64,000 nt of DNA. Origin: a candidate division FCPU426 bacterium. GTDB taxonomy: Bacteria > Oederibacteriota > JAAXVQ01 > JAUVAV01. The DNA is taken from positions 981,246 through 1,045,245 of the forward strand of contig JBFLYH010000002.1 in the NCBI GenBank assembly GCA_040756875.1, written 5' to 3'. Each line of letters begins with the position of its first letter. Within the stretch, counting starts at the first letter, position 1. Shown piece after piece: positions 15,437 to 57,100 of the stretch. A program made the position numbers and the translations under genes. Under the pieces are notes generated by a model. That model saw nothing but the letters and a program-made list of their open reading frames with translations. It was not told the origin of the DNA and made no database searches.

Positions 15437-15458
15437 TTCCACCAAGGAGGTTAGGATC

Positions 15459-16194: not shown

Positions 16195-16229
16195 AACCGG
16201 AGGGGGCCCTGCTCCCTCCGGTTTTTTAT
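16195..16229 (+). terminator. Rho-independent terminator (GC stem + T6)
   Basis: CCGGAGGGGG / CCCTCCGG stem then TTTTTTATT at 16221-16229. Confidence 0.7.
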
Positions 16230-16279
16230 TCATCTCCTTTAATCTCCCGCGTCGGCGTTTTTAGCGGCGTCCTTAACGC

Positions 16280-16308
16280 TTGACATTCATGCGGGTCAGG
16301 CGTATCTT
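16280..16308 (+). promoter_or_regulatory. sigma70-like promoter TTGACA-17-TATCTT of the pyr operon
   Basis: -35 at 16280-16285, 17-nt spacer, -10 at 16303-16308. Confidence 0.55.
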
Positions 16309-16344
16309 CTTAAACGGTCGCAATCCTTTAAACTGGTTCCGTGA

Positions 16345-17930
<1,586 letters not shown>

Positions 17931-40900: not shown

Positions 40901-41537
40901 CAACAAGCAGGAACAAACCTACGAAACGTATATGGCCGGCGGCTTGCACCGGCTGGACGCCCGGGCGGTTCACAGCGCCCCGGGCGAAAGGATCCTGTTC
41001 GCCTGGAGCTGCAGCCAGGATGTGCCGTACTACCTCTATGACGAAGCGCACCAGAACCGGTTTGCCAAGGAGCCTGTCCCGAACACGCACCTGTTCACCT
41101 ACCCCGAACCCAAAGGGCTCCTGGCCACTTTTTATTACAAACCGGACTGGACCGGCGGGATCGCCCGGCAAGTGGTGGAACCCGCCCTGTTCTACTTGTG
41201 GATGGGGCCGCCGTACGGCCTTAACATGCCCTTCTCAGCGGATTGGAAAGGCTGGATCGACATCGAAAAACCCGGCACGTACCAGTTCGGCGTGGACTGC
41301 AGCGGGTACTCGGATGTCACGATCGACGGCATCCCGGTCGTCGTCCAGGGCGAGCCGCCTTTTTCCGGCGTTCCCCGCCTGCAGGGCCGCAATTCAGTCC
41401 AGCTGGCGGCCGGGCGCCATCCGGTGACTGTCCGCTGGTCGCAGCAGTACGGGCTGTTGTTCAGGTTCTGGTGGGTTCCGCCCGGCCAAAAGAAGGAAAT
41501 CGTTCCCGTTTGGGTTCTGACGCCTCAGGACAAGTAA
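37938..41537 (+). CDS. large GT-C-like membrane protein with two C-terminal PA14-like domains
   Basis: 1199 aa; polytopic N-terminal two-thirds with acidic loop motif GIECDEAG; C-terminal PA14-like beta-sandwich patterns. Confidence 0.55.
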   Translation: MADKIKAAFEALKKSGINVSLRFVWLALAVGLIGLGQVNFFSRNLAAGMGLTLLGAVVLLLAAGESGKQAALLQRAGKWFGRAAERFSAFARARQKAEDLATGTAGQPAAKTNWKPLKTQFEETRRSWLAFAEETTFTAPKNLVMILGILLILAGQPFLVAEKFVLALILIIPGLYLLVNVIFAPQERYVIGRLDHIIRTVLFLIPGVGLIILGCMIHFQAVSLSLPREALGLGLNALGIFIIFSLFPRIIPDSFPESGDPVDQVTGRAANRTQVFMKIGLVALALVFFLASKHYANPATLNLSALMALLFLTAMSLSFPWSAEPRDQTSGENIVLKWLVKYLRLAAFGLGLYWAYRGQVLISHEQLYPGLYRFLAAAIAMWIALREPDPKYVDELKEKPLAWYWEALALVAILSAATWVRVHLLKDIPYGIECDEAGAGAHAVDVLQNHFSSLTIHPSGRPLFMLLDKVVTIRFFGIDNIGMKLGAAIWGTAGVFCVYLMTRFLFGTRAALATAALMACSRWHIHFSRYGWANTLMLVLQITGFYFIAKGIQTRNKWFFFLAGVGLTLSIHTETAARMVPFMCLGLLVYFVLFYKRFFRRNWQTLLVFLLGVWLAGASLFLFWVKQPRYLFNRVYEVSVFSGDANAPRNLVKGLVESTKLSLTQMNWHGDTRTRHNGGLSGEPVLDFWSAILFALGFGFSLYYWRRFRYTILLMWFFGSMAASIFALEAPQSHRAFGALPPIFMLMGAFIDRSRRLLRETLGKPGTLAGGLVLLLLLVPIAKINYKKYFDAYPGFDTACTAAAKYMGRVWPKAEQVIMSAYLWIGHPPFELYARGISGHFYFAASEAVPFRQQTDRDVNYTLILEYPEIMPTIQWYYPEGEYSEETHVRYGLQYRGWGVKHEIIQKYRGLNASYWSNPYWAGEPKLRRKDADLNLTFDQTTWPWNGPGSVKWEGTVFIPREGKYVFYLYGTNEVEVKVGSQVHLRAGNKQEQTYETYMAGGLHRLDARAVHSAPGERILFAWSCSQDVPYYLYDEAHQNRFAKEPVPNTHLFTYPEPKGLLATFYYKPDWTGGIARQVVEPALFYLWMGPPYGLNMPFSADWKGWIDIEKPGTYQFGVDCSGYSDVTIDGIPVVVQGEPPFSGVPRLQGRNSVQLAAGRHPVTVRWSQQYGLLFRFWWVPPGQKKEIVPVWVLTPQDK

Positions 41538-41539
41538 GC

Positions 41540-42817
41540 ATGGCCGCGGAACGGAAGGAAGGCTTGGTCGGCGTCTCCCTGCTGCTGTTCCTGCTGACCA
41601 TGGGGAACAGCGTCTGCGGCTTTGCGCTCCACGCCGTGGCCAGCCGCGTGCTGGGCCCGGAGGACTATGGCGCCTTCGTAAGCCTGCTGGCCCTGCTGAT
41701 GATCCTGGCCGTGCCCAGCCAGGCGGTGCAAATGATCGTCGCCAAACAGATCACGCTCGAGTTGATCCAGAACCAGCTGCGCCGCGCCGTCGTCCTGACC
41801 TGGCAGGCGGTGCGCTGGTCGGCGGCCGCCGGAATGCTGTTGTGGCTGGCCGTGACGCTCGCCCTGCCGGTCCTGAAATCCTTCCTGCACCTGCCTTCCG
41901 CGTCCCCCCTCCTGGCGGTCGGCGCCGCGATCGTCCTGACGCTGATCACCCCGGTGCTGCGCGGTTTTCTGCAAGGCACTCAGCGTTTCCAGGCTTTGGG
42001 CTGGAACTTCTTTTTAGAGGGCGTGGGGCGTCTGGCCTGGGGCGCACTGTTTCTGCTGGTGGGGTGGGGCGTCCTGGGCGCGGTCCTGGCCAGCGCCGCC
42101 GGCGCCTTGACGGCCGCGCTGATCGCCGTCTGGCTGCTGGGCGCCGCAGCCAAGGGCCTGGACCGGAACGGCCCGGAGCAGCCGGCCGCCCGGACGTCGC
42201 TGGGGCTGCAGGATTACGGCTGGCTGGTGCTGGTCACCATGGCCGCGTTTTTCGCCCTGTCCAACCTGGACGTGCTGATCGTCAAACACCTCTTTCCGCA
42301 GGCCGACGCCGGATATTATTCGGCCGGTTCTCTGATCGGCAAGGCGTTTCTGTTCCTGCCCTACACCTTTGCCCAGGTCCTGTTTCCGAAAGCCAGCCGC
42401 CACCATGCCCTGGGCGAGAGCACCCTCTCCCTGTTGAACCGCAGCCTGCTGTACACGGCCGCGGCCCTGCTGCTGGGGATGATTGCGGTCTACGCGCTGG
42501 CGCCGGTCCTGCTGTCGGTGCTGTTCGGGCCGGAATACAACAATCCCACCACCCTGCGCATGATCCGCTATTTCGGCGCGGCCATGACGCCGCTGGCCCT
42601 GGTATACGTGATGATGCAGTACAGCCTGGCGCTTAAAAACGCCGAGTTGTCCCTGCTGATGCTGGCGGATCTTCCGGTCTTCATTATCCTGCTCATGACT
42701 CTGCCCCGCAGCCTGGAAGGCGTACTCCTGGCCATGGGCTTGAATTTCCTGATCCTGGCGGCGGCCGGCTACGCGGCCATCCGGGCCAAGGCGCAGCCCC
42801 TGGCCGCGAAAGCCTAG
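41540..42817 (+). CDS. polysaccharide/oligosaccharide flippase-like membrane protein (Wzx/MOP-like)
   Basis: ATG 41540, 3 nt after the previous stop; 425 aa, ~12 predicted TM helices. Confidence 0.5.
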   Translation: MAAERKEGLVGVSLLLFLLTMGNSVCGFALHAVASRVLGPEDYGAFVSLLALLMILAVPSQAVQMIVAKQITLELIQNQLRRAVVLTWQAVRWSAAAGMLLWLAVTLALPVLKSFLHLPSASPLLAVGAAIVLTLITPVLRGFLQGTQRFQALGWNFFLEGVGRLAWGALFLLVGWGVLGAVLASAAGALTAALIAVWLLGAAAKGLDRNGPEQPAARTSLGLQDYGWLVLVTMAAFFALSNLDVLIVKHLFPQADAGYYSAGSLIGKAFLFLPYTFAQVLFPKASRHHALGESTLSLLNRSLLYTAAALLLGMIAVYALAPVLLSVLFGPEYNNPTTLRMIRYFGAAMTPLALVYVMMQYSLALKNAELSLLMLADLPVFIILLMTLPRSLEGVLLAMGLNFLILAAAGYAAIRAKAQPLAAKA

Positions 42818-42830
42818 AGGGAGGCGGCGC

Positions 42831-43685
42831 ATGGACCCCCTTCGCCCGCAGGATGCCGGCGTGGACGTCACCCTGGTCATTCCGGCTTATAATGTGGAAA
42901 CCCGCATCGTGCCCCTGCTCCAGTCGGCCCGGGACCAGCAGGGAGCGAAGGTTGAGACCCTGGTGGTCGACGATGCGTCGACCGACCGCACGGCCGAGGT
43001 GGCCGAGCACTGGGGCGCGCGGGTCGTGCGCAACGAGGTCAACCTGGACCGCTCGGAGGCCCGCAACGTGGGGGCCCGGGCGGCGCGGGGCAAATACATC
43101 TGGTTCATCGATTCGGACATGGAACTGACCCCGGGCATCGCGCAGGCGGCTTGGGAGGCCTGCGAACGCGAACAGCTGGACGGGCTGGTCATTCCGGAGC
43201 GCATCCGGCCGGCGAACCTGTGGGCCAAGAGCCGCAACCTGGAATTTATCATCAACGACAGCGACGAGGAGCGCTTTGTCCTGCGCTTCGTCCGCCGGGA
43301 CTTCTTCCTGCAAACCAAGGGGTTCGACGCCAGCCTGATCGCGGCCGAGGATTACGACTACCACCGCCGCATGCTGGACCATGGCGCCCGTTACCGGCTG
43401 CTGACAGGCTGGCACGTCTGGCACCACGAGCTGACCTCCATGCGGCGGGTGCTGAAAAAGTACTATTACTACGGGCTGACCATGTCGCTGTACATCCGGC
43501 GGCACAAGCAGCTGGCCGTGCGGCAGTTCTCGTTTCCCCGGCGCGGCTACCTTAAGCGGCTGGACCTGCTGCTGGGCCATCCCTGGCTGACGGCGAGCCT
43601 TTTTTTCTTCAAGACCCTCCAGTACGCGGCCGGCTTGGCGGGCATTGTGATGGCCTGGCTGGGATGGGACCGGGCGAAAAAATGA
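42831..43685 (+). CDS. glycosyltransferase family 2
   Basis: VTLVIPAYNVE...LVVDDASTDRT...DSD motifs. Confidence 0.75.
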   Translation: MDPLRPQDAGVDVTLVIPAYNVETRIVPLLQSARDQQGAKVETLVVDDASTDRTAEVAEHWGARVVRNEVNLDRSEARNVGARAARGKYIWFIDSDMELTPGIAQAAWEACEREQLDGLVIPERIRPANLWAKSRNLEFIINDSDEERFVLRFVRRDFFLQTKGFDASLIAAEDYDYHRRMLDHGARYRLLTGWHVWHHELTSMRRVLKKYYYYGLTMSLYIRRHKQLAVRQFSFPRRGYLKRLDLLLGHPWLTASLFFFKTLQYAAGLAGIVMAWLGWDRAKK

Positions 43686-44827
43686 GGCCCGCGCCCGCGT
43701 ATTTCATCGCCTGCCATATCGGAGACGACTACGGACCGCAGTTCGCCCTGCGCAACCACCTGGTCAAGCGGCGGGCGTCGTTCGTGTTTGTCACCTGCCC
43801 GTTCGATTTCGCCCGGGTTCCGGCCGCGCGGCTCGAACGGTACGAACAGGGGCAGTGCGTGGAAACCGTCGTCGGGCACGCCAACCGGAGCAAAGGGGTG
43901 GTCAGCTGGGTCAAGGACGTGCTGTTCGTGCTGGCCGCGGGCTTGCGCTGGTGCGGGCGCCGGACCCAGTTCATCGGCATCAACAACCTGCACGCCTCGG
44001 TGGGGGTGTTGCTCCGCTGGCTGAAGCGCTGCCAAAGCGTGGTGTACTACATCGTGGACTACACGCCGCGGCGCTTTCCCTCGCGGGTGCTGAACCTGGT
44101 CTACCAGCGGCTGGCCCGGTTCGCGGGCCGGCACGCGGATTGCCTGTGGGCCGTGTCGGAGCGGATCAAGCGGGTCTATACGGCCTGGGGGGCCGCGGAG
44201 CCGGCCAGCCTGGTGGTTCCCATCGGCCTGGACCCCGAGGACATCAGCGTGGCCGAACCCGGCCAGGTGGAGCGCAACACGCTGGTGGTCGTCAGCACGC
44301 TCTTCGAGAACAAGGGGGTCCAGCTGGCCATCGAGGCGCTGCCGGCCCTGCCCGGGGCGCGGCTGAAAATCATCGGCGTGGGCCCGTACGCCGACGCCCT
44401 GCGCGGCCTGGCCCGGTCCCGGGAAGTGGAAGACCGGGTGGCGTTCCTCGGGCATCTGGACCGCAAGGCGCTGTTCGCGGAGGTGGCGCGCAGCCGTATC
44501 GCCCTGGCGACGTACGTGGCCGACGCGGCCAACTATTCCTACTACGCGGATTCAGCCAAGCCGAAGGAGTATCTGGCCTGCGGCGTGCCGACGGTCATTA
44601 CCCGGGTGCCCTGGATCGCCGAACTTATTGCGGAAAAACCCATGGGTCTTGCGATAGAATATCGGGTCGAGGAACTGGTCGCGGCCTGCCGCCGCCTGTT
44701 CGAGGACGACGCCTTGTGGCGGACCTGCCGCGAGAACGCCCTGCGTTTCTCGCAGGGGCAGACCTGGGAGGCCATTTACGACGCGGCCCTGTCCCGGACC
44801 GGGGCCGGGCGCGGGAGGACGGCATGA
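43682..44827 (+). CDS. glycosyltransferase family 4 (GT-B fold)
   Basis: ATGA-coupled; C-terminal GT4 donor-binding block with EYLACGVPTVITRV. Confidence 0.65.
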   Translation: MRPAPAYFIACHIGDDYGPQFALRNHLVKRRASFVFVTCPFDFARVPAARLERYEQGQCVETVVGHANRSKGVVSWVKDVLFVLAAGLRWCGRRTQFIGINNLHASVGVLLRWLKRCQSVVYYIVDYTPRRFPSRVLNLVYQRLARFAGRHADCLWAVSERIKRVYTAWGAAEPASLVVPIGLDPEDISVAEPGQVERNTLVVVSTLFENKGVQLAIEALPALPGARLKIIGVGPYADALRGLARSREVEDRVAFLGHLDRKALFAEVARSRIALATYVADAANYSYYADSAKPKEYLACGVPTVITRVPWIAELIAEKPMGLAIEYRVEELVAACRRLFEDDALWRTCRENALRFSQGQTWEAIYDAALSRTGAGRGRTA

Positions 44828-45597
44828 ACCCGTTTAAACGGCTGCTCAAATGGTACGCGCCCATGGCCTTCGGCGACGGGTTGAACCGCTGCAATCAGCT
44901 GGCCCTGCGGCTGGCGCGGCGGGAGCCGTGGCAGCGGCTGCTGGATGTCGGCTGCGGTGACGGGGAACTGACCGCGAAATTCCTCGCGGGCGCGTCCGGC
45001 CGCCGGGCGGACGGCATCGAATACGTCGCCGCGCTGCACGAGGCGGCCGGACGGCGGGGGATCGCCTGCCGCAGCCTGGACGTCAACCTGCCGTGGACCG
45101 GCGTCGGCGATTCGGCCTACGACCTGGTGCTGTCCAGCCAGAACATCGAGCACGTGCACAACACGCGCCTGTACCTGGAGGAGTGCCGCCGCTGCCTGAA
45201 ACCCGGGGGGAGGCTGCTGGTGCTGACCGAAAACCTGGCCTCCTGGATCAACATCGGCGCGCTGCTGTTCGGGTGGCAGCCCTTCTCGACCACCAACATC
45301 GACGGCTGGAGCGTCGGCAATCCCTGCGTGTGGCACGCCGACGAGCCGAAGGACATGGCTTTCGTCGAGGAGCAGAAAAAGCACGGCGTGACCGGGACCA
45401 CCGGCCACATCCGGGTGTGGACCCGCGCCGGCCTGGCGGATCTCCTGAAACGCGTGGGCTTTGAGGATGTCCGGCTCTACGGACGGGGGTATTTGCCGTT
45501 TTGGGGCTGGCTGTCGGACTGCCTGAGCGCGCTGGACGGCCGGCACAGCCATTTTCTCGTCGCCAGCGCCCGGAAGCCGGGCGGAGCGCCGGCCTAA
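44824..45597 (+). CDS. class I SAM-dependent methyltransferase
   Basis: ATGA-coupled; SAM motif I LLDVGCGDGELT. Confidence 0.7.
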   Translation: MNPFKRLLKWYAPMAFGDGLNRCNQLALRLARREPWQRLLDVGCGDGELTAKFLAGASGRRADGIEYVAALHEAAGRRGIACRSLDVNLPWTGVGDSAYDLVLSSQNIEHVHNTRLYLEECRRCLKPGGRLLVLTENLASWINIGALLFGWQPFSTTNIDGWSVGNPCVWHADEPKDMAFVEEQKKHGVTGTTGHIRVWTRAGLADLLKRVGFEDVRLYGRGYLPFWGWLSDCLSALDGRHSHFLVASARKPGGAPA

Positions 45598-45654
45598 GGC
45601 GGCCGGAAAGGCTCCGCAGCACGTCCATTCTGAAGCAAAGGGGGATGAACCCGC

Positions 45655-46623
45655 ATGCCTTCCCAGCCCCGCTCCGGAACGGCCAAACCCCGCTTGGTGG
45701 TGGTGGCGCCGTTCTACAATGAGCAGGAAGTGCTTCCCGAAACCGCCAAGCGTCTGACGGCGGTGCTTGACCAGTTGAAGCGGAAGGGGCGGATATCGCC
45801 CCAGAGCCACCTGCTGTTCGTGGACGACGGCAGCGAGGACGGCACCTGGAACCGGCTGAAAGAGCTGAAGAAGCGCCAGCCGTCCCTGGCCGCGCTGCGC
45901 CTATCGCGGAACTGCGGGCATCAGAACGCCTTGATGGCCGGATTGATGGCCGCGCGCACGCAAGCGGACTGCGTCATTTCCATCGACGGGGACCTGCAGC
46001 AGGACGAAAACGCGATCCCGGCGTTCGTGGAGAAGTACCGCGAGGGCTATGACCTCGTGTACGGCGTGCGCAAGAACCGGAGCACGGACTCGTTTTTCAA
46101 ACGGGCGACCGCGGAGATATTCTACCGGTTCATGCACATGCTGGGCGTGCGGGTGATCCGCAACCACGCGGATTACCGGCTGGCCAGCCGGCGGGCGCTC
46201 GACGCCCTGGCCGAGCACGGCGAGACCATGCTGTTCCTGCGGGGGATTTTCACCACCCTGGGGTTTAAAAGCACGGTCGTCTACCACGACGTGCGCGAAC
46301 GGTACGCCGGCGCCTCGAAGTACTCGGTGCGCAAAATGATGTCCTTCGCGCTGAACGGCATCACCTCGTTCACGTTCAGCCCCATCCGCTTCGTGAGTTT
46401 TCTGGGGCTGGGAGTGGTCGCGGCCAGCATCGTGGTGGGCATCCTGACCTGGCTGCTGACCAAGCCCGGCCAGGTCATTGATTTTAAAATCATCCTGTTT
46501 TTCGCGATCTACTTCCTGGGCGGCGTGCAGCTGGTCTGCCTGGGCGTGATCGGCGAATACGTGGGCAAGGTGTACGTGGAAGTGAAGAAGCGCCCCAAAT
46601 ACATCGTCGCCGAGGAGTTCTGA
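45655..46623 (+). CDS. polyprenyl-phosphate glycosyltransferase (GT2; DPM1/GtrB/ArnC-like)
   Basis: VVVAPFYNE...FVDDGSEDGT...IDGDLQQD motifs plus two C-terminal TM helices. Confidence 0.75.
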   Translation: MPSQPRSGTAKPRLVVVAPFYNEQEVLPETAKRLTAVLDQLKRKGRISPQSHLLFVDDGSEDGTWNRLKELKKRQPSLAALRLSRNCGHQNALMAGLMAARTQADCVISIDGDLQQDENAIPAFVEKYREGYDLVYGVRKNRSTDSFFKRATAEIFYRFMHMLGVRVIRNHADYRLASRRALDALAEHGETMLFLRGIFTTLGFKSTVVYHDVRERYAGASKYSVRKMMSFALNGITSFTFSPIRFVSFLGLGVVAASIVVGILTWLLTKPGQVIDFKIILFFAIYFLGGVQLVCLGVIGEYVGKVYVEVKKRPKYIVAEEF

Positions 46624-46626
46624 TCC

Positions 46627-47265
46627 GTGCGTCCCATGGAGCGGTTGTACCTGGACCGGCTTTTCCGCCGGGTGGAGGGCTTGCTGGCGGCCGGCGGCCT
46701 GAGGCCGGGCGCCTCGGTGCTGGATATGGGCTGCGGCGTCGGCCTCGACGCGGAATATCTGCTGGAGCGCGGTTTTCAGGTCACGGGCCTGGATGTGGAG
46801 CGGCACGACGGCGACTGGAAGGCCCTGGCCGGCCGCGGCATCCGTTTTGAATGCGCTTCAGCCGAGGACCTGCCGTATCCGGACGACAGTTTCGACGCCG
46901 TGTGGATCAAGGACGCGCTGCACCACATGCAACAGCCGGAACGGGCGCTGGCCGAAGCGCGCCGCGTGGCCAAGCCGGGCGGGCCGGTCATCGTGATCGA
47001 AGCCAACCGGTACAACCCGGTTTTTTACTTCCACCTGACGCTGTTCGGCGGGCACCAGCACTTCTCGCGGCGCCGGTTCAGGCAATTGCTGGGCACGGCT
47101 GCGGGCGACTACGCCCTGGCCCGGGCCGAGAGCCGCTGCCTGCCCTGGGACGCCGCCTGGCTGCGGGCCCTGCTGGGCTGGTTCGAGGACCGGGTGGAAG
47201 GCTGTCCGCTCCTCGCGCCGTGGCTCACGTATCAGATCGCAGTAATAAAAGGCGGGGCAGCATGA
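46627..47265 (+). CDS. class I SAM-dependent methyltransferase
   Basis: GTG start (alternative ATG at 46636); SAM motif VLDMGCGVGLD. Confidence 0.65.
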   Translation: MRPMERLYLDRLFRRVEGLLAAGGLRPGASVLDMGCGVGLDAEYLLERGFQVTGLDVERHDGDWKALAGRGIRFECASAEDLPYPDDSFDAVWIKDALHHMQQPERALAEARRVAKPGGPVIVIEANRYNPVFYFHLTLFGGHQHFSRRRFRQLLGTAAGDYALARAESRCLPWDAAWLRALLGWFEDRVEGCPLLAPWLTYQIAVIKGGAA

Positions 47266-48059
47266 AACATCGATGGCTGCGCGGGCTCTACCATTGGGCC
47301 TACCAGTTTGGCTGGGACGGTTTGCGCTGGCTGCAGGCCTGGCGGGGCCTGCCGGCGTTCCTGCGCAACCGGGCGCGCTTCAAGCGCCAGTGGAAACGAA
47401 CTCCGTCTCCCTTTGCCTGGGGCAAGCTGAGGCCCTGCCCGGCCGACCGCTTTGCCGACGCCGGCCAGGCCCGCGGGCATTACTTCCACCAGGACCTGTG
47501 GGCAGCCCAGCGCCTCTTTGCCAACCAGCCGGACCAGCACGTGGACGCCGGCTCGCGCGTGGACGGCTTCGTGGCGCACGTGGCCTCGTTCCGCGAACTC
47601 GAGGTCTGGGATCTGCGGCCCCAGCCCGGGCCCCTGCCGCGCAATCTCCGTTTCCGGCGGCAGGATCTGACCCAGCGGCCCTGGCCTTTGAACGGATACT
47701 GCGGCTCGCTCTCCTGCCTGAGCGTGCTCGAACACCTGGGGCTGGGGCGCTACGGCGATGCCGTGGACCCGGAGGCTTATCTGGCCGGCTGGGAGAACCT
47801 GCACGCCGCGCTGAAACCTGGGGGGCGGCTGTATTTCTCCGTGCCCATCGGGCCGGGCCGCATCGAGTTCGACGCGCACCGCGTGTTTGATTTGAGTTAT
47901 TTGCTGCCGCTGATCGAGGAAAAATACCTCGTCGAAGCCCTGGCGTATGTGAACGACGAGGGCGATTTGGTGGAGCCGGCGGGCCGGGACCAAGGGGCGG
48001 AACGCGCCAGCTTCGGCTGCTGGTTCGGCTGCGGACTGTTTGTGTTGAAGAAAAAATAG
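47262..48059 (+). CDS. methyltransferase-fold protein, DUF268-like
   Basis: ATGA-coupled; 265 aa; family assignment from motif memory only. Confidence 0.45.
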   Translation: MKHRWLRGLYHWAYQFGWDGLRWLQAWRGLPAFLRNRARFKRQWKRTPSPFAWGKLRPCPADRFADAGQARGHYFHQDLWAAQRLFANQPDQHVDAGSRVDGFVAHVASFRELEVWDLRPQPGPLPRNLRFRRQDLTQRPWPLNGYCGSLSCLSVLEHLGLGRYGDAVDPEAYLAGWENLHAALKPGGRLYFSVPIGPGRIEFDAHRVFDLSYLLPLIEEKYLVEALAYVNDEGDLVEPAGRDQGAERASFGCWFGCGLFVLKKK

Positions 48060-48136
48060 GACTGCCAAGCTCAAGGTAGGGGCGTTCAATTGAACGCCCC
48101 TACAAAACGAAAACCCACCGAAAGGAAGAAACATCC

Positions 48137-50878
48137 ATGTCCCGCGTTTCCTGGGGCGCCCTTAGCCTGGGCGCCCTTTTCCTGATCGGCCAGGTGGTGA
48201 TACTGGCCGGAAATCCGCCGCTGGGAGGCGCTGCCAGCCTCCTGGCCGTGGCGCTCAGCCTCGGCTGGTGGCTGAAGCGTTCCGGCAAGCCCATTGCGCC
48301 CTGGGTCGCGGTGGCGGCCCTGGGCTGTGCGGCCTGGGCCCAGGCCCTGGTGAAAGCCGAGCCCAAGGACGCGCTGTGGCTGTTTATTTTGTCCGGCCTG
48401 CTGCTTTTTTTGGCCAAGCCCGCCGGGCTTGGCTGGAAAGAGGACGGCGCCGTGCCGTCCGGGCGAGCGCCCCTGGAAAAATGGGAACCCTGGTTTGTGC
48501 TGGGGTTGCTGGGGCTGGCAATAGTGACGCGCTTCGTACCGATCAACGGTTTTCCCTTTGGGTCCATCGCCGAGGAAGCCCAGCACGTGCCCGTGCTCGA
48601 GGGCGCCATGGCCAGCCAGGTTTACGTGCCGCATTTCACGCACGGCAATATGGGCACACCCACCCTGATGAGCTACCTCGGCGCGGCCGCGTCCCGCGTT
48701 TTTGGCCGGCACATCAACAGCTACCGCATGGGCGTGGAGTTGTTCAGCGTCTTTTCCATCCTGGCCTTCTATTTCACAGCCCGGCGGGCAAGTTCGCCTT
48801 TCACGGCCGCGGTCACCAGCATCCTCTATTCGGTCTCCCTCTTGCACCTCACGCTCTCGCGGCGTTTTTATCCCTACATCGTGATTTTTTTACCCGTGGT
48901 CCTGGGCTGGGGGCTGTGGCTGGAGGGGCTGGCGCGCAGGCGCTGGTACTGGTTTTTCCTGGCCGGCCTGGCCGCGGGATTCAGCCTGCACGGCTATGAA
49001 CCGGGCCGGGGTGTGTTTCTGATCTTTTTAGCCTGGGCTGCCTGGATGTGGCTGGCCCACCGCCCCCGCCGGATGGTGAAGGGACTCACCCCAGGGGACT
49101 CCCTGCAGCCGGCTTCGCCTGGCCCCGCCCTGCCCTCTGGCCGGGACTTCGCCCTGTTTTGGGTGGGGTTCCTCATAGTCGCCGGTCCGATTTTTTATCA
49201 TATGAGCGTGCATTGGGACAATTACTGGCACTATGTGGCCAGCAAGAACCCCAACCGCACGCAAACACTGGCTGCGTATGTCAAGCAGGTGTGGTCCTTG
49301 GTCGGCGTTTATGCGCACTTGTTCCAGGTTAAGAGCGACGGCAATTACACGATGTACACCACCTACCAGCCCCTGCTTGACCCAGTGACCAGCGCCCTGT
49401 TCGGGCTGAGCTTCTTTTTCGTGCTGGCCCGCGCCTGGCAGCCCATGCCTTCCTTTGTCCTGCTGTTCTTTTTCGCCGGCCTGGCGCCTGCGCTGATCGG
49501 CGGCGGGGAGGAGCATCCGACCGCCCGCCGCACCTGCCTGGCCACCCCGGCCATCTATCTCATCATAGCCTTGGGCCTGGAGCGCCTGCGGCTGCTTTTC
49601 CGTCAGGGCCTGCCGTCCTGGGGGCGCAGGATCTTGCTGGCCGCGGCTGTTTTCCTGACCGCGGGCGTGGCCGCCTATTCGCTGCATTACTACTTCTTCG
49701 TGTTCGGCGACTCGCCCGAGGCGCGGACCGGGTATTGCTGGCGCGGCTTGAAGATCGCCCAGGCCCTGGACGCCCATCCCAAGGCGTACAGCCGGCTGCA
49801 ACCCCTGTTGTATCACGAACAGATTTGGGTGCTGGCCAAGCACCCCGGACAACCCGGGCTAGTGCCCACCCAGGAGGACCTGCTGGTGCTGGCGCCTGAC
49901 CAGGACCAGCAGCTCTTTTTGGAAGGCTACATGGAGCCGACCCTGCCGTTTTGGCGCTCCCAATTTCCCAACGCGCAGGTCACCGTTTACCGGGAGAAAT
50001 ATCCGGACCGGCCCTTTTGCGAGACCTGGCCGTACTTCAAACTGGGCACGGATCCCAACAATCCGGCCACGTACTTGATCCAGATCAACATTCCCAGGCA
50101 GGACGTGGCGTTTTTCCAAATGCTGGTGGACGCCACCACCGGACAGCACCTGCCGGTCTGGAATCCCGAGTTCGGAGCCGGACTGGTTCCCGGCCAGCGC
50201 CTGCGCCTGGCCGGCGCGGTGGTCACCCATCCTGGAGCGGTTTATTCCTGGAAACTGGGCTGGCTTGGCTGGCAAATAACCGTGGACAAAAAACCCGCGG
50301 AGTGGAGCCAAGACATCCCTCTGGACCAGGGCGTGCACTATTTCGAAATTTCCGGGCCGGTTCCTGCCGGCTGCGAGGGTCCGCTGCCCCTGGTGGTGCT
50401 GGAAAACGGCCGCAATGTGCAGCGCCTGGGGAGCGTGGTGGGGTTGCCCGCCAGGCAGGGCATGCTGGCCGAATACCGCAACAGTCCCAGCCGCTGGGAC
50501 GGGCCGGCTGAGGTTACCAGCCAAAAGCTATTCGGCCAGGAGCGATTCTACAGCGTACCTCCGGGCTTTGGGCTGCCGTTGTCGGCGATTTACCGCTGCC
50601 GGCTGCAGGTGCCCGAGGACGGCGAGTATTCTTTCGAGACCAAGCATTTTTCGCGCTGCCGGCTGCTGCTCGACGGCCGCGAAGCTTTCAATAACTTCAA
50701 CAATGTACAGGCGCCCGTGATCACGCCCATGGCCCTCGCCGCCGGCAAGCCGGTTGCGCTTGAAGCCCAGTTCATCGTCGAGGGCGAAACCCTGACCATG
50801 ACTTTTCAGCTTTTTTACCGCCGTCCGGGCCAAAAACAGGCGCAATGGGTGCCCATGGAGTGGCTCCGGTTGCCTTGA
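48137..50878 (+). CDS. large GT-C-like membrane protein with C-terminal PA14-like domain
   Basis: 913 aa; polytopic; acidic loop motif SIAEEAQHV; C-terminal beta-sandwich-like region (YRCRLQVPEDGEYSFE...LLLDGREAF). Confidence 0.5.
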   Translation: MSRVSWGALSLGALFLIGQVVILAGNPPLGGAASLLAVALSLGWWLKRSGKPIAPWVAVAALGCAAWAQALVKAEPKDALWLFILSGLLLFLAKPAGLGWKEDGAVPSGRAPLEKWEPWFVLGLLGLAIVTRFVPINGFPFGSIAEEAQHVPVLEGAMASQVYVPHFTHGNMGTPTLMSYLGAAASRVFGRHINSYRMGVELFSVFSILAFYFTARRASSPFTAAVTSILYSVSLLHLTLSRRFYPYIVIFLPVVLGWGLWLEGLARRRWYWFFLAGLAAGFSLHGYEPGRGVFLIFLAWAAWMWLAHRPRRMVKGLTPGDSLQPASPGPALPSGRDFALFWVGFLIVAGPIFYHMSVHWDNYWHYVASKNPNRTQTLAAYVKQVWSLVGVYAHLFQVKSDGNYTMYTTYQPLLDPVTSALFGLSFFFVLARAWQPMPSFVLLFFFAGLAPALIGGGEEHPTARRTCLATPAIYLIIALGLERLRLLFRQGLPSWGRRILLAAAVFLTAGVAAYSLHYYFFVFGDSPEARTGYCWRGLKIAQALDAHPKAYSRLQPLLYHEQIWVLAKHPGQPGLVPTQEDLLVLAPDQDQQLFLEGYMEPTLPFWRSQFPNAQVTVYREKYPDRPFCETWPYFKLGTDPNNPATYLIQINIPRQDVAFFQMLVDATTGQHLPVWNPEFGAGLVPGQRLRLAGAVVTHPGAVYSWKLGWLGWQITVDKKPAEWSQDIPLDQGVHYFEISGPVPAGCEGPLPLVVLENGRNVQRLGSVVGLPARQGMLAEYRNSPSRWDGPAEVTSQKLFGQERFYSVPPGFGLPLSAIYRCRLQVPEDGEYSFETKHFSRCRLLLDGREAFNNFNNVQAPVITPMALAAGKPVALEAQFIVEGETLTMTFQLFYRRPGQKQAQWVPMEWLRLP

Positions 50879-51156: not shown

Positions 51157-54100
51157 ATGGTACTGCGCAAGCGGCAAAGCTCCATAACCCTGTTGCTTTC
51201 CTTATTATTAGTCATACCGCCCGGTACGCTGCAAGCCAAGAGCCAGCCCGAACCAACCGAGCCTTCCACCCGCCCTGAGCGCCTGACTCCCGAAATCGTC
51301 GTCCTGGTGCCGGATGTGCTGGATTCGGCCAAGACCTTAGCCAATGCCAGGCAGCGGTTGATCAAACGCGGCTTGAAATCCCGGGACGTGGTCGTGACCG
51401 CTGAACAGCCGGGGTTCAGTCGTTCGGGCGGGTTGGACCAGCAGGCGCGGCAGCTGGAAAAAATCCTGATTGATCTGAAAATCCGTCAGCCAAGCGCACG
51501 GTTGCACGTGGTCGGCAAGGGCAGCGGCGGCTTGGTGGTCCGGCAGTACCTGGCGAGGCAGGCGGGCCTCGGGCCACAGGCAGTGACCGTGGAAAGCGCG
51601 GTCGGCTTGGGCGTGCCGCACCACGGCCGCTGGTGGGCGGGCGTGGCCAGCAGCCTGGGCGCCAAGTCGCAGGCCCTGGCTGACCTGGCGCCGGGTTCTG
51701 CGTTTTTAAACCAGCTTAACCAGCCCATTGAAGCGCGCCGGGCCGAGGTCAGGCGCGTGCAGGGTGTGCTGGCCAGCCTGCGCCAGCCGAACCTGCGGGC
51801 CCAGGTCCGGGGCAAACTGTCAGCCATTGAAAGCCAGCAGGCGGACATACGCGAATCCGTGGAGCGGGCTCTGCACTTTCCACAGCGCGCCGCTTTGAGT
51901 CCTGATGACCAGAAACGCCGCCAGGAAGCGGAACGGTTCAAGGCGAAACTCAACCGCCTTCCGGCCGCGGAAGCGCGGCACCAAGCCGCGTCCCTGGCCG
52001 CTGCCAGCCAGCGCCAGGTTCTGGCCGCGGAAAAATTCGCAGGACAATCCCTCCCTTGGCAGGCGCCGGCCCGGCAATCAACCCGTACGGCCGAAGAGGC
52101 CCTGGTTCGCGCCCAACAAACCCTGCTGGAAAAACTGTCCCAGCCCCAGGCCAAGTTGCCGGCCGGATTCCAGCCGCCGAAGACCCAAGCCCAGCCAGGG
52201 CAATGGCTTTCCGTTTTGCAGGCCCTGGAGCACAGCAGCCAGGCTGCGGCTGAAAAAGCCGCCAGCCAGGCTGGCGGCCTGCAAAAACAATTCGCGTCCC
52301 TGGATTTCGAAGGGCTCGAAGCCCGTTTAAAAAACGCCGGCACGGAGGCAGCGGGGCGCCTGCCTGCCGACTTGCTGCAACTCAAGCCCCAGCACATGGC
52401 CAGGGACCTGGAGCGCGCCGCGCGCAAATATGAAACCGCGGCTGCGTTGGAAGCTGCCTGGCGGCAGAGCCAGGCCGGCAAAGAGCAGTGGCTCGATCAA
52501 GTGGAGCGGTTGACCCAGGTCGCGGCCAAACAGCAACTGGCCCGGGACCTGGCGGCGTACGCCGCAAAGGCCGGACTTGCGCCGGCCCGGCTGCGCGCCG
52601 GGGCGGCTGAGGCAGGGGATTTGCCCGAGCGCGCCCAGGCCGCGTACCGCGCGTGGCGCCAGAAGGAAGCCGCCCTGGACCAGGCTTTTGCCGCGGCCAA
52701 GGAACAGGGGTTGGAAACAATCGTCAAACCCGAGTTTTGGAAACTGCGCGAGCGGACGGCCCAGGTGGCTGAGCGCACCCACCAGGCGATTGCGCGCGAC
52801 AGCCTAAAAGCCTGGGAAGGACTGGCAGCCCTGCGCCTGGGGCCCGCGGCCAAGGAACAGGCCATGTTCGCCCAGGCCACTGAGCACCGCCTTAACCGCG
52901 AACTGGCAGCCTGGAAGCAGGAACTGCTGAAGCCGGATTGGGAAGCGCGCTTTTCGCAGGCTGCCTCGGCCCTGAACCGCAGCCTGCCGGCGGCAGAACA
53001 GGCCGGAGCCTTGAAGCAGGCTTTAGTACAGCAGGCAGGCGCTTTGCAGTCGGCTTTGGCCGCTGTTCGTTCCGACCTGGCGGCGCGTGAGCGGCAAAGC
53101 GCCTGGGAGCGGTTGGCAGCTGACAGCCGACAGGCAGCTGCGCAGTTGCTGCAGCAACAAGCGGATCATGGCTTCGTGGCCGACGCCCTGGCTGCCGGCA
53201 ATTTCCTGGCCGCCGGCAGAAAACAGGAACAGCAACGCCTGCTGGACCTGGTCAGGCAGAATGATCCGGCTGCCAGCCGTCAGGTGGCGGTGCTGGCCCA
53301 ATTGGCGCTTCAGCGCCACGGGCTGCAGTCCAGGCTGCTGGAGACCGGCGGCCTGGATGCAGGGCCTGCCCCGCAGTTGCTGGAGCGGATCGCCGGGCAA
53401 GCCAAGGCCCTGGGGCTGAAGACCGCCCTGCCACCCAAAGCAATGGAGCACCTGGCCCAGGCCCAGGAGGAGCGGCAAAACCGCTGGAAACAACTGAACA
53501 CCAGCTGGAAGCGGCAGTGGTCGCAGGCTGTCCAGGAGGACCGCGAACGCAACCAGCCGGCCAAAGCCTGGTCAGCCTGCCAGGAGACAGTTGCCGTCAG
53601 CCGCAGCCTGGCTGTGCTGGAAGACTGCTCGGCCGCGCTTTCGCAAATGAAATCCTGGCGGGATATGGGAACCCAAGCCTCGGGCCAGCAAGGCCGCTGC
53701 CAGGTCCTGGAGCAGCAGTTGTCCGCTTGGCTGCAAACGTCCGGACTTGGCAGCCGGATCCCGGCCGTGCAATCAGCCGCAGCCGCGGCCCAGGAAAAAT
53801 TTGCGCCCGCGGCCTGGCAAGCCATTCTCAGCCAGTGCGGCCAGAAGCAGGAACAGGCAAGCGCCAGACTGCAAAACTTGAGGCGCGAACTGGCCAGGCA
53901 GCCTGAATGGATTTTGCCGCAAGTCGCCGGAGTGTCGGAACAGCTGGCTCAGGCAGCCCAGGACCCCAGCCGGATCAAGGGCTTGTTGCTCGAAATTTCC
54001 GGCTTGCGCGAGCAAACCCAAAAACACCTGACACAGGCGCGGGAACAAACCCTGGAGGCGCTCTGGCCCGGACAGGGCAAGGGGAAAGCTTCGGCCCTGG

Positions 54101-57100
54101 GCCAGGAGTTGAATCAAGTTTTATCCAGCCTGCAGGACTACCGCCAGTTGAGCCGGATGAATGCCCAGGCTGATACCCTGCAAGACCTGCTGTCAGCGAA
54201 AGCGCTGTTGTGGCAGCAACAGAATCTGCAAGCCCAAGGGCTCGGAGCGGTCAAGACCCTCGAATCCCTGCTCGCCCAAACAGCCGGAATCCCGGGCAAA
54301 CCCTCCGGGCAAGTCTTCAGCCAGATCACCGCCACCCTGAGCCTGATGCAAAAGCTGACTGCCAACCAGATGCAATCCGCGGGATTGCTGCCAGGCCTTA
54401 TGGATCGGGAGTGCGGGATGCCGGCCAAAGCCGCGCTCCAAAAAGAATGGAGAGCCTGGCTGGACGGGCAGTTTTCCGCCCAGCAAGGCTTGGATTGGGC
54501 CGGCGGGCAGCTTCAATTAAGCACAGTGCTGTCAAACCCAGGGGCAGGCTGGCGGCAACAGACCAACGCCCTGGCCACTGGCATGCTGGAGAATCTGGTG
54601 GACCAGGCGGCTGAGCGCCAGATCAGCCTGGGCCTGGCTGAAGTGCAGCGCTTGAGCAACGAGGCGCGGGAACTGCTTTCAGCGCCTGTGCGCCAATTGC
54701 GCGCCGAACTGGGGCAATTGGGGCTGTTGGACCCAAGGCAGGATCAGGGGCCGGGCCTGAGTATCGTGTCCTGGGCGCAGCATTTCGTGCAGCAGGGCGT
54801 GGCCCAGGGCGTGGCGCAGGCCCTGGCCAGCCTGGAGCGGACGCAGGCCCAGTTCAGCAACCGCCTGGAGCGGGGCCTGCTGGAACTCGCGCGCGCCCAG
54901 GCCACCATGGCGATCAATGCCCTGAGCGGCCAATACGCGGGCCTGGCCGTTGAGGTGAAGCGCCTGTGGGAGGGCGTTGGGCCTGAGGCCGGCGAAGCGT
55001 TGAACCTGCAGGGATTGCTGAACGTGGCCCAGGACCAGGAGTTTCTGCAAACCTGGCAGGAAGATATCTTCAGCAAACTGGTGGCGGAGAATCCCTTGCA
55101 GGCTGACCTGGGACGGCTGGGCCAGGTTGCCTCCTCGCTTCAGGCTTTGATCGACCAGCCGGCCAGCCAGCTCGGCGACTGGCTGGTGAGGAGCGGAGTG
55201 AACCTGGGCGTGGAGCGGCTGCAGTCCCTGCAGGCCGAAGCCCAGAAGCTGCTGCACGAGGCTATGACCACGGGCGCGGTCAACGAGCTGCGGACGCGCC
55301 TGAATGCCGTTCTGCTCAAGTTGGACCAGGAAGCAGGCCGCTTGAGCCGTTATCTGGACCAGACCCTGGCCAAGCTTCCGTCCGGAGTGGTTCCCGCGGG
55401 CTTGCGGGACGCGCTGCGGGAATTGCGCGACCTGCCCGGCACCCTGGCTGCCGGGATCGACGGCCTCATGCAGGACGTGGAGAGTTACCTTGCCAACCAG
55501 GTGCTGCAGTCCGGATTTGACCGCCTGAACGCCATGCTCAACCAGTACGGCGGACAGGCGTCCTTGTGGGCCGTGGGCGCCAGGCTGCAATTGTCGCTGA
55601 CCGAGATTTCCAGCCTGGGCCAAACCGCGGTGGCGCAGTTGGAAGTGTCCCTCGCGGATCTGGGGACCGGAAATCTGACCGGTTTGTGGGAAAACGTGGC
55701 AGCCGGGCTCTCGGATTTCGGCGGGAACCTTCTGAACCTGCTGCAGGATTTCGTGGCTAGCGCGAGCCCGGTGGATTTGGGCGGGTTTCTCAACATCACG
55801 GGCCTGGCTGATTCGCTGTGGGCCTCGGCCGGCGAAGTGCTGGGGCAATTCACGGGCCTGTTCGAGCTACAGGTGCCAATGGCCGGCGATTGGTGGCAGG
55901 CAGACGAGCTGTGGCAGCAGTTGTCCGGCATTTTCAATGCGGAGAACTGGCAGCTTGATTTCTATCAGGCTGCGGACGGGTTCCTGCGCAATATCAGCGA
56001 AAACCTGGAAAACCTGCTCAACTCGGGTCTGGCCTGGGTGAACGACCGCTGGACAGAATACATGAACCAGGCGCGGGAATACTGGGACATCCTGGCCGGC
56101 GGGCCTGGCCGGTGGTGGGATGAACTGGCCAGCGGCCGCTGGGACCAGAGCCTGGGCAACCTGATGACGCAATACCTGCCGCCTGAATACCAGCCTGCTG
56201 TGAGCGCCCTGCAGCAGGTGCGCCTGGCGTTCAACGCGGACTTTCAGCTGAGCGCGGAGTGGATTACGAACATTTTGGACAACTTAAGCGCCTACCTGAG
56301 CGAGGACGCGCGGGCCGTGTACCAGCAGGTGCGCGAGTTATATGATACGGGCAGCGAATATTATTCCGCTGGCAGCGACATCCTCAACGCCATTTCGAGC
56401 GGGGATGTCACCAGCGTGCTGACCAACATCAGCCGCCTGGGCAGGTTTCATTTCAACACCGGCGGACAGATGTACCAGTGGGGCAAAGGCCGGGCCAATA
56501 AAAAAGGGAAGTACGACGGCCAGGCCCTGTCGGCTGCCAGCGAGGAAGAAGTGCTGGCAGCGTACGTCAATGCCCTCCCAGCCAGCATGCGCGAACAGGC
56601 CCTGCGGATGCTGGAAAACGGAACCCTGCCCGGCAGTAATCCCGAACGCGAAATCGACGTCGCGGACTACGACCCGGACGTGGACGGCCAGCCAGCTGGC
56701 CCGGCAGCCTATGAAGCCGCCCAGGAAGCTGACGCGTCTGCCACTTTGCCAGATGTAGCAGCCGCATCCGCTTCGGATCGTCACCCCGGCGTGCCTGAAG
56801 CCGGGGTCCAGGAGCAAACTCCCCCCCGCAGGTCCCCCTCTTTGCCAAAGAGGGGGCGGGGGGAGTTGGATAGTGGCTTAGGCGGGAACGACAGTCAAGG
56901 CTCAACAACCGATGAGGGTGATGCTTCTGCTGCCGGCACCCAGCCAGGCGGTGAAGGCGAATCCGGCCCCCCAGACCTCGGCCCGCCGCGCATGTCCGGC
57001 GTGCCCACCCCGCCGCCTGTAAAGCAGAGCTTGTTGGATAAGATGAAAAATGTATACACCAACCTAAATCCAGTTGGATTATCCAAGAACGCCGCCCAGG

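Follow-up and report, generated by a model that had tools for sequence, protein, structure and literature searches.

The N-terminal domain of the giant protein encoded in the window (the whole 64-kb stretch of DNA analyzed here) appears to be a dead remnant of a Lipase_2/PGAP1-type hydrolase. It forms the constant head of a family of giant proteins with exchangeable C-terminal effectors and most likely has a non-catalytic docking role, a reading to which we assign a probability of about 0.7. The giant ORF and its parts are as follows:

51157..57936, plus strand: giant ORF of 2259 aa, a polymorphic-toxin-like secreted protein with a full-length ortholog and distant relatives
51157..51237, plus strand: predicted Sec signal peptide, MVLRKRQSS-ITLLLSLLLVIPPG-TLQA/KS, read from the sequence
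51286..51735, plus strand: truncated lipase-like (alpha/beta-hydrolase) domain, predicted to be catalytically dead, aa ~44-193 (the head)
51700..56976, plus strand: non-repetitive Ala/Leu/Gln-rich body, aa ~182-1940, presumed alpha-helical
54757..56556, plus strand: second conserved module within the body, aa ~1201-1800, G/L/N/W-rich, recognized by its identity to the ortholog
56977..57015, plus strand: junction (pre-toxin) motif LGPPRMSGVPTPP, where GC content and related loci place a breakpoint of recombination and composition
57016..57933, plus strand: exchangeable C-terminal effector module, a minimal lipase-like alpha/beta hydrolase according to alignment, model and Foldseek

Scanning contigs with a single-sequence query revealed a full-length ortholog (L003) on the MAG contig CAZVUO010000001.1 (9797..16501), 54.6% identical to the giant ORF, and exhaustive phmmer searches added the more distant full-length relatives P0009 (2278 aa) and P0013 (2258 aa). 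The family carrying this head is small, with approximately 10 members known among billions of proteins, several of them fragments. All are annotated as hypothetical and originate from uncultured, unclassified bacteria. The collections searched contain no record of the window's own giant protein. The signal peptide segment is the sole hydrophobic 19-mer of the giant protein, and the N-termini of family members are comparable. The body, of approximately 1,750 residues, is composed of 16% A, 14% L and 11% Q, and scanning it for internal repeats and transmembrane segments revealed none. Its start (aa 182-239) is helical in the structural model described below, while the helical state of the remainder is presumed. 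The second conserved module stands out with 66-78% identity to L003, compared to 34-59% in the neighboring body, and it reaches up to 48% identity to P0009 in one 100-residue block; Pfam gave no match to this module.

The first-pass annotation had described the region 51247-51760 as an N-terminal domain with a class-2 lipase layout. Read in frame 1, this region corresponds to aa 31-201 of the giant ORF, and all the motifs quoted for it are present:

51298-51315, plus strand: VVLVPD, aa 48-53, from the translation
51310..51315, plus strand: Pro52-Asp53 after strand beta3, replacing the H/P-G motif of the oxyanion loop according to column counts
51514..51531, plus strand: GKGSGG, aa 120-125, within HVVGKGSGGLVVRQYLA in the translation, a degenerate nucleophile elbow with Gly122 (51520-51522, codon GGC) at the serine position
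51613..51627, plus strand: VPHHG (in GLGVPHHG), aa 153-157, the conserved G-T-P-H-x-G loop after strand beta6 in the alignments
51682-51720, plus strand: LAPGSAFLNQLN, within aa 176-188 of the translation
51682..51720, plus strand: DLAPGSAFLNQLN helix motif, where the alignment to true hydrolases ends

Word-indexed homology searches with the N-terminal domain and its family alignment gave no match, and relatives were reached only through exhaustive HMMER searches. Among 1.8 billion representative proteins, phmmer retrieved 75 matches, mostly small canonical alpha/beta hydrolases, and a profile made from 40 of these matches recognized the window protein with E-values of 7e-29 to 2e-30. Profile alignment with lipase families was the check proposed for the layout: hhalign aligned the giant-clade and canonical profiles over 135 columns (probability 99.5%, E 3.5e-22), establishing homology. 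A search of PDB sequences with the giant-clade profile also matched Legionella RavL (7x2p, E 2.4e-4), with akGsGgLV paired with aHSrGGLV. Taken together, the phmmer matches, the profile E-values and the hhalign score argue that the lipase-like layout is not due to chance, and these comparisons bear out the class-2 lipase/PGAP1 assignment as far as homology is concerned. The canonical relatives pass the Pfam cut-offs of Lipase_2, PGAP1, DUF676 and Palm_thioest. None of the giant-clade members reached a Pfam gathering score, the best being 18-19 bits for Palm_thioest against a threshold of 26.8.

The closest known relatives of the head are thus found in the group formed by Lipase_2 (PF01674), PGAP1-like (PF07819), DUF676 and Palm_thioest, with named examples such as Streptomyces MAS1 (5h6g), MAJ1 (7v3k), the Burkholderia family I.2 lipases (1ys1), the N-domain of Legionella PlaB (6zti) and RavL. 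The head and this group have in common the order of the first four strands, a strand-turn-helix elbow whose nucleophile-2 and nucleophile+2/+3 positions hold small residues, the G-T-P-H-x-G loop, a structural motif that the true lipases also possess, and the P-G-S-x-F-L-x-x-L-N helix, in addition to significant profile-profile and structural similarity. Unlike these enzymes, the head has Gly for Ser and P-D for H/P-G, lacks the Asp and His strands, and is fused into a protein of approximately 2,000 residues. Non-catalytic alpha/beta-hydrolase folds also occur in neuroligins and in the lipase-like domains of plant EDS1/PAD4/SAG101, which are complete with eight strands, whereas the head amounts to half of the fold and is part of a putative bacterial toxin. 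We found no specific sequence relationship between the head and any of these proteins.

The first-pass annotation had further placed GKGSGG at the elbow position and considered the serine shifted or missing. GKGSGG lies opposite G-H-S-M-G-G in all alignments, which puts Gly122 at the nucleophile position and Ser123 at nucleophile+1; the serine is missing, not shifted. All eight aligned giant-clade members have Gly in the nucleophile column, compared to Ser in 60 of 61 canonical relatives and Cys in 1 of 61, and with L003 (GKGSGG) and L006 (AKGTGG) included, the count of Gly rises to 10/10 family members. The next column is divided between Ser and Thr, each in four of the eight aligned members. 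Likewise, the oxyanion Gly column, occupied by Gly in 54 of 55 canonical relatives, contains Asp in 8/8 aligned giant-clade members, and the PD motif is also found in L003 and L006, again giving 10/10. Both PD and G-x-G are among the invariant residues of the head.

An AlphaFold model of the head, built from an 8-sequence alignment (pLDDT 82), predicts four strands followed by helices; this structure prediction, also proposed as a check, contains no Asp/His half. Gly122 lies at the strand-turn-helix apex of the model, between strand 115-121 and helix 123-141. Beyond DLAPGSAFLNQLN, the Asp and His strands come next in canonical relatives, while helices are predicted for the giant clade, and the canonical profile matches all nine giants at positions 28-181 of 335 only. 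Because complementation in trans would be possible, we searched for the Asp/His half of the fold in all six frames of the window as well as further along the giants, with no match. With the nucleophile Ser, the oxyanion motif and the acid/His half all lost, the alignments and the model show that the head is incapable of ester hydrolysis by a serine-hydrolase mechanism, a more profound degeneracy than the one proposed initially. The head is nevertheless 57-73% identical to its ortholog, against 34-59% for the adjacent body; by this comparison it is under purifying selection and ranks with the protein's most conserved regions. A lipase scaffold would hence have been cut to half, stripped of catalysis and kept under selection as a structural module, making the head a clean bacterial example of a pseudoenzyme. 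For annotation, this is a warning against assigning the N-terminal domain a function on the strength of the label "lipase-like".

At the other end of the protein, an intact hydrolase-like domain had been noticed, and this observation was upheld. Its candidate catalytic residues are:

57598-57600, plus strand: Ser2148, from the alignment
57748-57750, plus strand: Asp2198, from the alignment
57856-57858, plus strand: His2234, from the alignment

All sequences aligned for this domain keep AHSQGT and the aspartate of DPVP, and 8/9 keep the His. In the AF2 model (pLDDT 77), which has the fold of a minimal lipase, Ser2148 occupies the apex between a strand and a helix and Asp2198 follows the penultimate strand. 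Foldseek searches with this model retrieved cutinases, LipA of B. subtilis and the lipase of A. fulgidus. Alignment and model are thus consistent with an intact-looking Ser-Asp-His hydrolase, which probably attacks envelope lipids of competitors. Only eight homologs of the domain were found among 5.8 billion proteins; searches against Pfam and NCBIfam, as well as tblastn against plasmids, gave no match. It resembles Tox-ABhydrolase-1/2/3 (PMC3482391) and the T6SS Tle effectors in being a lipase-like Ser-Asp-His hydrolase with a putative immunity gene, but none of the Pfam or NCBIfam models recognizes its sequence.

The effector module differs in base composition from the sequence that precedes it, with the GC content falling from 0.65 to 0.51 and then 0.43 across the junction (150-nt windows). 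The junction motif is also present in L003 and L007, and an orphan cassette, P0002, begins with MSGVPTPP. While the N-terminal and central regions are homologous throughout the family, the C-termini differ after the junction and fall into types represented by the window and L003, by P0009, by P0013 and L007, and by P0015. Pfam gave no match to the C-termini of P0009, P0013 and P0015, nor did a search of PDB sequences with the P0013 C-terminal domain, for which a Cys/His papain-like nature is a guess. The pairing of a dead N-terminal with a live C-terminal hydrolase, to which the first-pass annotation had attached meaning, is incidental, since other family members pair the same head with unrelated C-terminal domains. 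L007 illustrates this exchange: it is a close relative with 74% identity up to the junction, yet it carries the P0013-type domain. In this locus the P0013-type giant is followed by an IS200-type (Y1) transposase and then by an orphan cassette starting with MSGVPTPP, which corresponds to the toxin type of the window and its cognate small ORF. An orphan cassette beside a Y1 transposase was seen in L007/L008, and none within the window itself.

Two genes follow the giant ORF:

57933..58433, plus strand: coupled ORF of 166 aa whose N-terminal segment is hydrophobic, a putative immunity protein with homologs after the same toxin domain
58453..59364, plus strand: lipoprotein-like gene, 303 aa, in the low-GC module, with a counterpart in L003

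The start of the 166-aa ORF overlaps the stop of the giant ORF by 4 nt. Its homologs after the same toxin domain are 24% identical in L003, 58% in L007/L010 and 24% in L011, and the AHSQGT domain is followed by such a homolog in four contexts. Unrelated small ORFs come next downstream of other toxin types (L001, L004, L005), and in every locus a small ORF overlaps or abuts the stop codon of the toxin gene. Comparison of the loci shows that the small ORF co-varies with the toxin type, and the 166-aa ORF is a putative immunity gene.

In polymorphic toxins, the N-terminal domains serve secretion or anchorage and the C-terminal domains are toxins, alpha/beta-hydrolase toxins included (PMC3482391). 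We compared the giants with CdiA/CdiI, Rhs, MafB, LXG and the Sec-dependent classes (Zhang et al., 2012, PMC3482391). Like these systems, the giants keep their N-terminal and central part constant, conserve the junction, vary in their C-terminal domains, whose composition deviates, and are followed immediately by a cognate small gene; one related locus also has an orphan toxin-immunity cassette by a transposase. From its gene organization, the giant family therefore looks polymorphic-toxin-like, with both toxicity and immunity putative. Its components are different: a dead half-lipase head instead of TPS, PAAR, LXG or MafB-N, a non-repetitive Ala/Leu/Gln-rich body instead of FHA or RHS repeats, and the junction motifs GPPRMSGVPTPP and K-x-A-x-x-W-A-D-P-R-R instead of VENN or DPxGL. 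Moreover, unlike in the compared systems, no T5SS, T6SS or T7SS genes were found nearby. The surroundings of the family members revealed no gene for a partner, receptor or secretion component, and IMG/VR viral contigs, PADLOC defence models and Rfam gave no match. These data define a rare candidate toxin family whose junction motifs are new, whose C-terminal effectors comprise at least four types unmatched in Pfam, and whose immunity candidates match the effectors.

A binding or targeting role, as first suggested for the N-terminal domain, can reasonably be inferred. The remnant is predicted to retain no more than the opening half of the fold, with its four parallel strands, elbow turn, GTPHxG loop and PGSxFLxxLN helix, and with the acid- and histidine-bearing strands and loops swapped for helices running into the body. 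Comparison of the loci shows it to be the constant head of rare, presumably Sec-exported and largely helical giant proteins in which the junction motif precedes an exchangeable effector of foreign base composition and then a translationally coupled small ORF. Since the head is unchanged whatever the effector and is among the best conserved parts, its role is most likely non-catalytic: docking, anchoring or assembly nucleation. By docking or anchoring, it may fix the N-terminus to the envelope of the producer or to a partner, or it may nucleate assembly; the long body would thereby present the C-terminal effector. A more ambitious proposal, which we advance tentatively, is that the giants represent an undescribed class of antibacterial weapon. 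It would consist of a Sec-exported, non-repetitive helical filament of approximately 2,000 residues with the dead half-lipase head as anchoring or delivery module, GPPRMSGVPTPP and WADPRR as junction motifs for cassette exchange, and the G/L/N/W-rich module (aa ~1200-1800) possibly for target entry. If true, this delivery route would be distinct from those of T5SS/CdiA, Rhs, T6SS and T7SS toxins.

The head could instead face the target cell as a ligand- or receptor-binding module, its residual lipase cleft binding a prey lipid, glycolipid or envelope component. This is rather unlikely. Known polymorphic toxins use their N-terminus on the producer side and bind receptors through central regions (PMC3482391). 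In addition, much of the acyl pocket and lid belongs to the half of the fold that is absent here, and an invariant Asp now stands at the oxyanion loop. Somewhat less probable still is an intramolecular chaperone, export-competence or oligomerization domain that folds first after Sec export and nucleates or bundles the body without anchoring it, perhaps being cleaved. Its position directly after the signal peptide favors this reading, as do the two long helices that, in the model, pack on the half-sheet and run into the body. EDS1/PAD4 and similar lipase-like pseudoenzymes act via protein-protein contacts, which also counts in its favor. Against it, no sign of oligomerization or processing was seen, and neither a protease domain nor a cleavage motif turned up near the head.

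It is highly improbable that the head is still an enzyme with a shifted or non-canonical site, such as one built from a Ser/Thr123 nucleophile, His155 and Asp53. Ser or Thr is indeed kept at 123, His155 is present in 7/8 members and Asp53 is invariant. However, a register shift of one residue would put Lys, Arg or His at nucleophile-2, where a small residue is required, and the apex of the model is Gly122, with Ser123 beginning the helix. Furthermore, His155 belongs to the GTPHxG loop, where it is equally conserved but non-catalytic in true lipases, and P0014 lacks it. No alpha/beta hydrolase is known to have such a site, and the column statistics and the model led us to reject Ser123 as a nucleophile in a shifted register. 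Finally, a phosphoribosyltransferase-like nucleotide-binding segment, evoked by the resemblance of VVLVPDVLDSAKT to a PRPP loop, by a Pfam Pribosyltran match over aa 36-84 (E 8.5e-4, 19 bits, below the 26.3 cut-off) and by weak NCBIfam ribose-phosphate diphosphokinase matches, is refuted by the hhalign result with canonical hydrolases, by structural matches that include no PRTase, and by the restriction of the sub-threshold match (PF00156) to 1/8 members.

Beside the head and its docking role, the lipoprotein-like gene at the end of the low-GC module deserves mention. Pfam gave no match to its product, and its place in the toxin system is uncertain. It is 80% identical to its counterpart in L003 (16993..17928) and thus far better conserved than the immunity-like ORF.

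The interval 51247-51760 lies in frame within a single long ORF (51157..57936, + strand) coding for a giant protein of 2259 aa, and its translation contains all the motifs quoted in the first-pass annotation. The segments are:
N-terminus, + strand: predicted Sec signal peptide of typical build, read from the sequence (MVLRKRQSS / ITLLLSLLLVIPPG / TLQA-KS)
aa 48-53, + strand: VVLVPD
aa 120-125, + strand: GKGSGG
aa 153-157, + strand: VPHHG
aa 176-188, + strand: DLAPGSAFLNQLN
According to a hydrophobicity scan, the signal-peptide segment is the sole strongly hydrophobic stretch of the whole giant.

Taken alone, library searches gave weak evidence that the N-terminal domain (the head, aa ~44-193) is lipase-like. 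The head stayed below every Pfam threshold, the giant having only sub-threshold matches (Palm_thioest, Hydrolase_4, DUF7379 and, at aa 36-84, Pribosyltran). Searches with the head returned no useful match in NCBIfam, none in a word-indexed protein search, and lipases at E 0.15-1.6 among PDB sequences. An exhaustive HMMER search of 1.8 billion cluster representatives recovered 75 proteins. The best seven of these 75 (P0009 to P0015) are the same kind of protein as the giant, two being full length (2278 and 2258 aa). From the remaining 68, 61 were aligned as canonical relatives, small proteins of about 150-350 aa with a classical hydrolase layout (in order, VLVHG or LVPGY, GHSMGG, GTPHHGT, MRPGSxFLxxLN, Asp, His); the ten scanned were above the Pfam cut-offs of Lipase_2, PGAP1, DUF676, Palm_thioest or Abhydrolase_1. 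A profile of eight heads from the giant clade aligned with one of 40 canonical relatives over 135 columns (probability 99.5%, E 3.5e-22), and the canonical profile matched the giant at E 7e-29 and the window at E 2e-30 in a six-frame scan. Searched against PDB sequences, the giant-clade profile found the Legionella effector RavL (7x2p, E 2.4e-4), then Burkholderia and Pseudomonas family I lipases. At the sequence level, homology of the giant-clade head to canonical lipase-type enzymes is solid, which bears out the lipase class 2/PGAP1-like layout proposed at first reading. An AlphaFold2 model of aa 31-240 (pLDDT 82, pTM 0.69) supported the same assignment, with Foldseek matches to Streptomyces lipase MAS1, MAJ1, the PlaB N-domain, Burkholderia lipases, RavL, CalB and B. 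subtilis LipA; the structure models used here are predictions resting on shallow alignments of 8-9 sequences. A phosphoribosyltransferase reading of aa 36-84 was rejected, the Pribosyltran match occurring in only one of eight family members and in none of the structural match lists.

The head is nevertheless tied to the Lipase_2/PGAP1 group by homology and not by function: it lacks the serine, acid, histidine, oxyanion motif and full fold. Its catalytic degeneracy, already suspected in the first-pass annotation, was confirmed on four independent counts: nucleophile, register, oxyanion loop, and acid plus histidine. G-K-G-S-G-G was paired with G-H-S-M-G-G in every alignment, and the nucleophile column held Gly in all eight giant-clade members, compared with Ser in 60 and Cys in one of the 61 canonical relatives. 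The elbows of the full-length ortholog (locus L003, GKGSGG) and of a tenth member (L006, AKGTGG) agree with Gly at this position. The small residues of the tight turn are retained in the giant clade (Gly/Ala at nucleophile-2, Gly at +2, Gly/Ala at +3), and the model placed the strand end at Lys121, the apex at Gly122 and the helix start at Ser123. Ser123 occupies nucleophile+1, where Ser and Thr alternate in the clade, four each; as a register-shifted nucleophile it would place Lys/Arg/His where the residue must be small. Therefore, of the shifted or missing serine initially considered at GKGSGG, the missing serine stands and the shifted one does not. In all giant-clade members, P-D replaces the oxyanion H/P-G that follows the first strand, with Asp in the Gly column in 8/8, versus Gly in 54 of 55 canonical relatives. 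The model contains only four strands (aa 46-51, 78-80, 115-121 and 147-151), then helices through aa 239. Likewise, all nine giants matched the canonical profile (335 positions) over ~28-181 only, and the segment beyond, in which Asp and His are nearly invariant, had no match in any of the nine giants nor in any frame of the 64-kb window. The head is thus half an alpha/beta-hydrolase fold without the catalytic apparatus, and the intact Ser-Asp-His triad that we looked for is not there. It cannot be a serine hydrolase; residual non-canonical catalysis is a rival reading.

Judging by its conservation, the head is under selection despite catalytic loss. It is 57-73% identical to its ortholog, compared with 34-59% for the adjacent body, and every member of the giant clade retains P-D, G-x-G, W-A, D-L, S and F. 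The body (aa ~182-1940) is Ala/Leu/Gln-rich, with no repeats and no transmembrane segments, and it includes a second conserved module:
window 54757-56556 (aa ~1201-1800): G/L/N/W-rich, 66-78% identity to the ortholog
This module, which matched no Pfam family, reached up to 48% identity within one 100-residue block with the distant P0009; it may serve in translocation or in interaction with a membrane. In locus L012 (8001-12498, GCA_023139775.1), a stop codon divides the giant gene into a 383-aa product (head and first helices) and one of at least 1106 aa that restarts 27 nt later, which could reflect a pseudogene, a sequencing error or programmed read-through.

Comparative evidence was decisive for the nature of the whole protein. 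P0009, P0013 and P0015 have the head and body in common with the giant, and their C-terminal domains are unrelated. At every locus (window, L001, L003, L004 and L005), a small ORF either adjoins the stop codon of the giant or has a 4-8 nt overlap with it, and these ORFs are related to one another only where the toxin domains are. Across the final ~900 nt of the gene, GC drops sharply, from 0.66 to 0.44 in the window, 0.63 to 0.39 in L003, 0.57 to 0.36 in L001 and 0.58 to 0.50 in L004. Two junction motifs were found:
window 56977-57015, + strand: LGPPRMSGVPTPP, at the exact site of the GC break
P0009 aa 2021-2100, P0013 aa ~1993, P0015 aa ~900, P0002 aa ~35-45: K-x-A-x-x-W-A-D-P-R-R (also K-E-[AG]-A-x-T-W-A-D-P-R-R), ahead of the variable domains
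The second motif has two to three copies in P0009 and is absent from the window protein, where only LGPPRMSGVPTPP remains. The gene at L007/L008 is 74% identical to the window protein up to LGPPRMSGVPTPP, and thereafter carries a P0013-type domain and its own small ORF. L007 (1-4265) and L008-L010 contain, in order, the giant gene 3' end, the small ORF, an IS200-type Y1 transposase, an orphan toxin cassette and another small ORF. The cassette protein (P0002, start MSGVPTPP) is of the window's toxin type (56% identity), and the small ORF that goes with it shares 58% identity with window 57933..58433. This locus catches cassette exchange in the act. These sequence comparisons establish that the head stays constant across the family, in which the C-terminal domain is exchangeable and the ORF downstream co-varies with it.

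In the window, the last ~230 aa of the giant form a minimal lipase-like alpha/beta hydrolase with eight homologs among 5.8 billion proteins. The AHSQGT motif and the aspartate of DPVP are invariant; the histidine occurs in 8/9 sequences. The model (pLDDT 77) put Ser2148 at a strand-helix apex and matched A. fulgidus lipase, B. subtilis LipA and cutinases. A pseudo-hydrolase at one end and an intact hydrolase-like domain at the other, as first described, are therefore both present, but their pairing is incidental, because the head also occurs with non-hydrolase C-termini.

We propose that, after Sec export, the non-catalytic head would anchor or dock at the producer's envelope, bind a partner or nucleate assembly, and the helical body would present the effector. 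In the window the effector would be a lipase/esterase attacking competitors' envelope lipids, and the 166-aa protein encoded directly downstream, with its N-terminal hydrophobic segment, would protect the producer. Alternatively, the head could be a target-side receptor or lipid-binding module, or a chaperone or oligomerisation domain.

Polymorphic toxins are well known, as are non-catalytic alpha/beta-fold proteins (neuroligins, EDS1 family), which keep the full fold, unlike the half fold of the giant's head. The giant family has the architecture of polymorphic toxin systems, which comprise an N-terminal secretion/anchorage domain, a central presentation region, a pre-toxin junction, a variable C-terminal toxin, an immunity gene and orphan cassettes, and alpha/beta-hydrolase toxins are among the known types (Zhang et al., 2012; PMC3482391). 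In a limited literature search, we found no description of a dead half-lipase head combined with a helical body free of repeats, these particular junction motifs and a lack of T5SS, T6SS or T7SS genes near the giant gene. The family is small and partly fragmentary, its members on record are "hypothetical protein" entries or metagenome sequences, and viral and plasmid collections contained no relative.

Several genes surround the giant gene:
window 37938-50878, L003 6556-9504, L012 1-7821: glycan-synthesis cluster, upstream
window 58453-59364, L003 16993-17928: lipoprotein-like gene (303 aa), after the immunity-like ORF
window 60149-60982: 277-aa secreted protein, start I-N-Y-Q-G-R-L-T-D
window 60992-62887: multi-pass membrane protein
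In the window, this cluster encodes two large glycosyltransferase-like membrane proteins with PMT_2 + PA14 (1199 and 913 aa), together with methyltransferases, a flippase and enzymes of the GT2 and GT4 families. Upstream of the giant gene, L003 and L012 also have genes for PMT_2(+PA14), GT2 and methyltransferase proteins, and L004 and L005 have methyltransferases. This may reflect a functional link, such as glycosylation of the giant's Pro/Thr/Ser-rich linker past the signal peptide, or just lineage background. Downstream, after dropping from about 0.65 to 0.43 at the toxin junction, GC remains at 0.37-0.47 as far as the window end (56977-64000), so this block is not limited to the toxin-immunity pair; the corresponding low-GC stretch of L003 is short (15000-17900), with GC back at 0.58-0.69 after about 3 kb. 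The lipoprotein-like gene, with no Pfam match, is 80% identical between window and L003, against just 24% for the immunity-like ORFs. The 277-aa protein shares homology over about 140 aa with two proteins of L001, and each of the three is followed by a multi-pass membrane protein (L001 15272-17717 and 20047-22486); the gene pair recurs downstream of the giant in two distant members of the family. A 197-aa ORF (59457-60050) had a weak sub-threshold match to Por_Secre_tail, a T9SS C-terminal sorting domain (E 1.5e-4, 22.5 bits, cut-off 27), possibly hinting at the organism's envelope and secretion type. Unrelated to the giant, a Bat-like operon at 2643-7079 encodes a VWA and TPR protein and a BatD protein.
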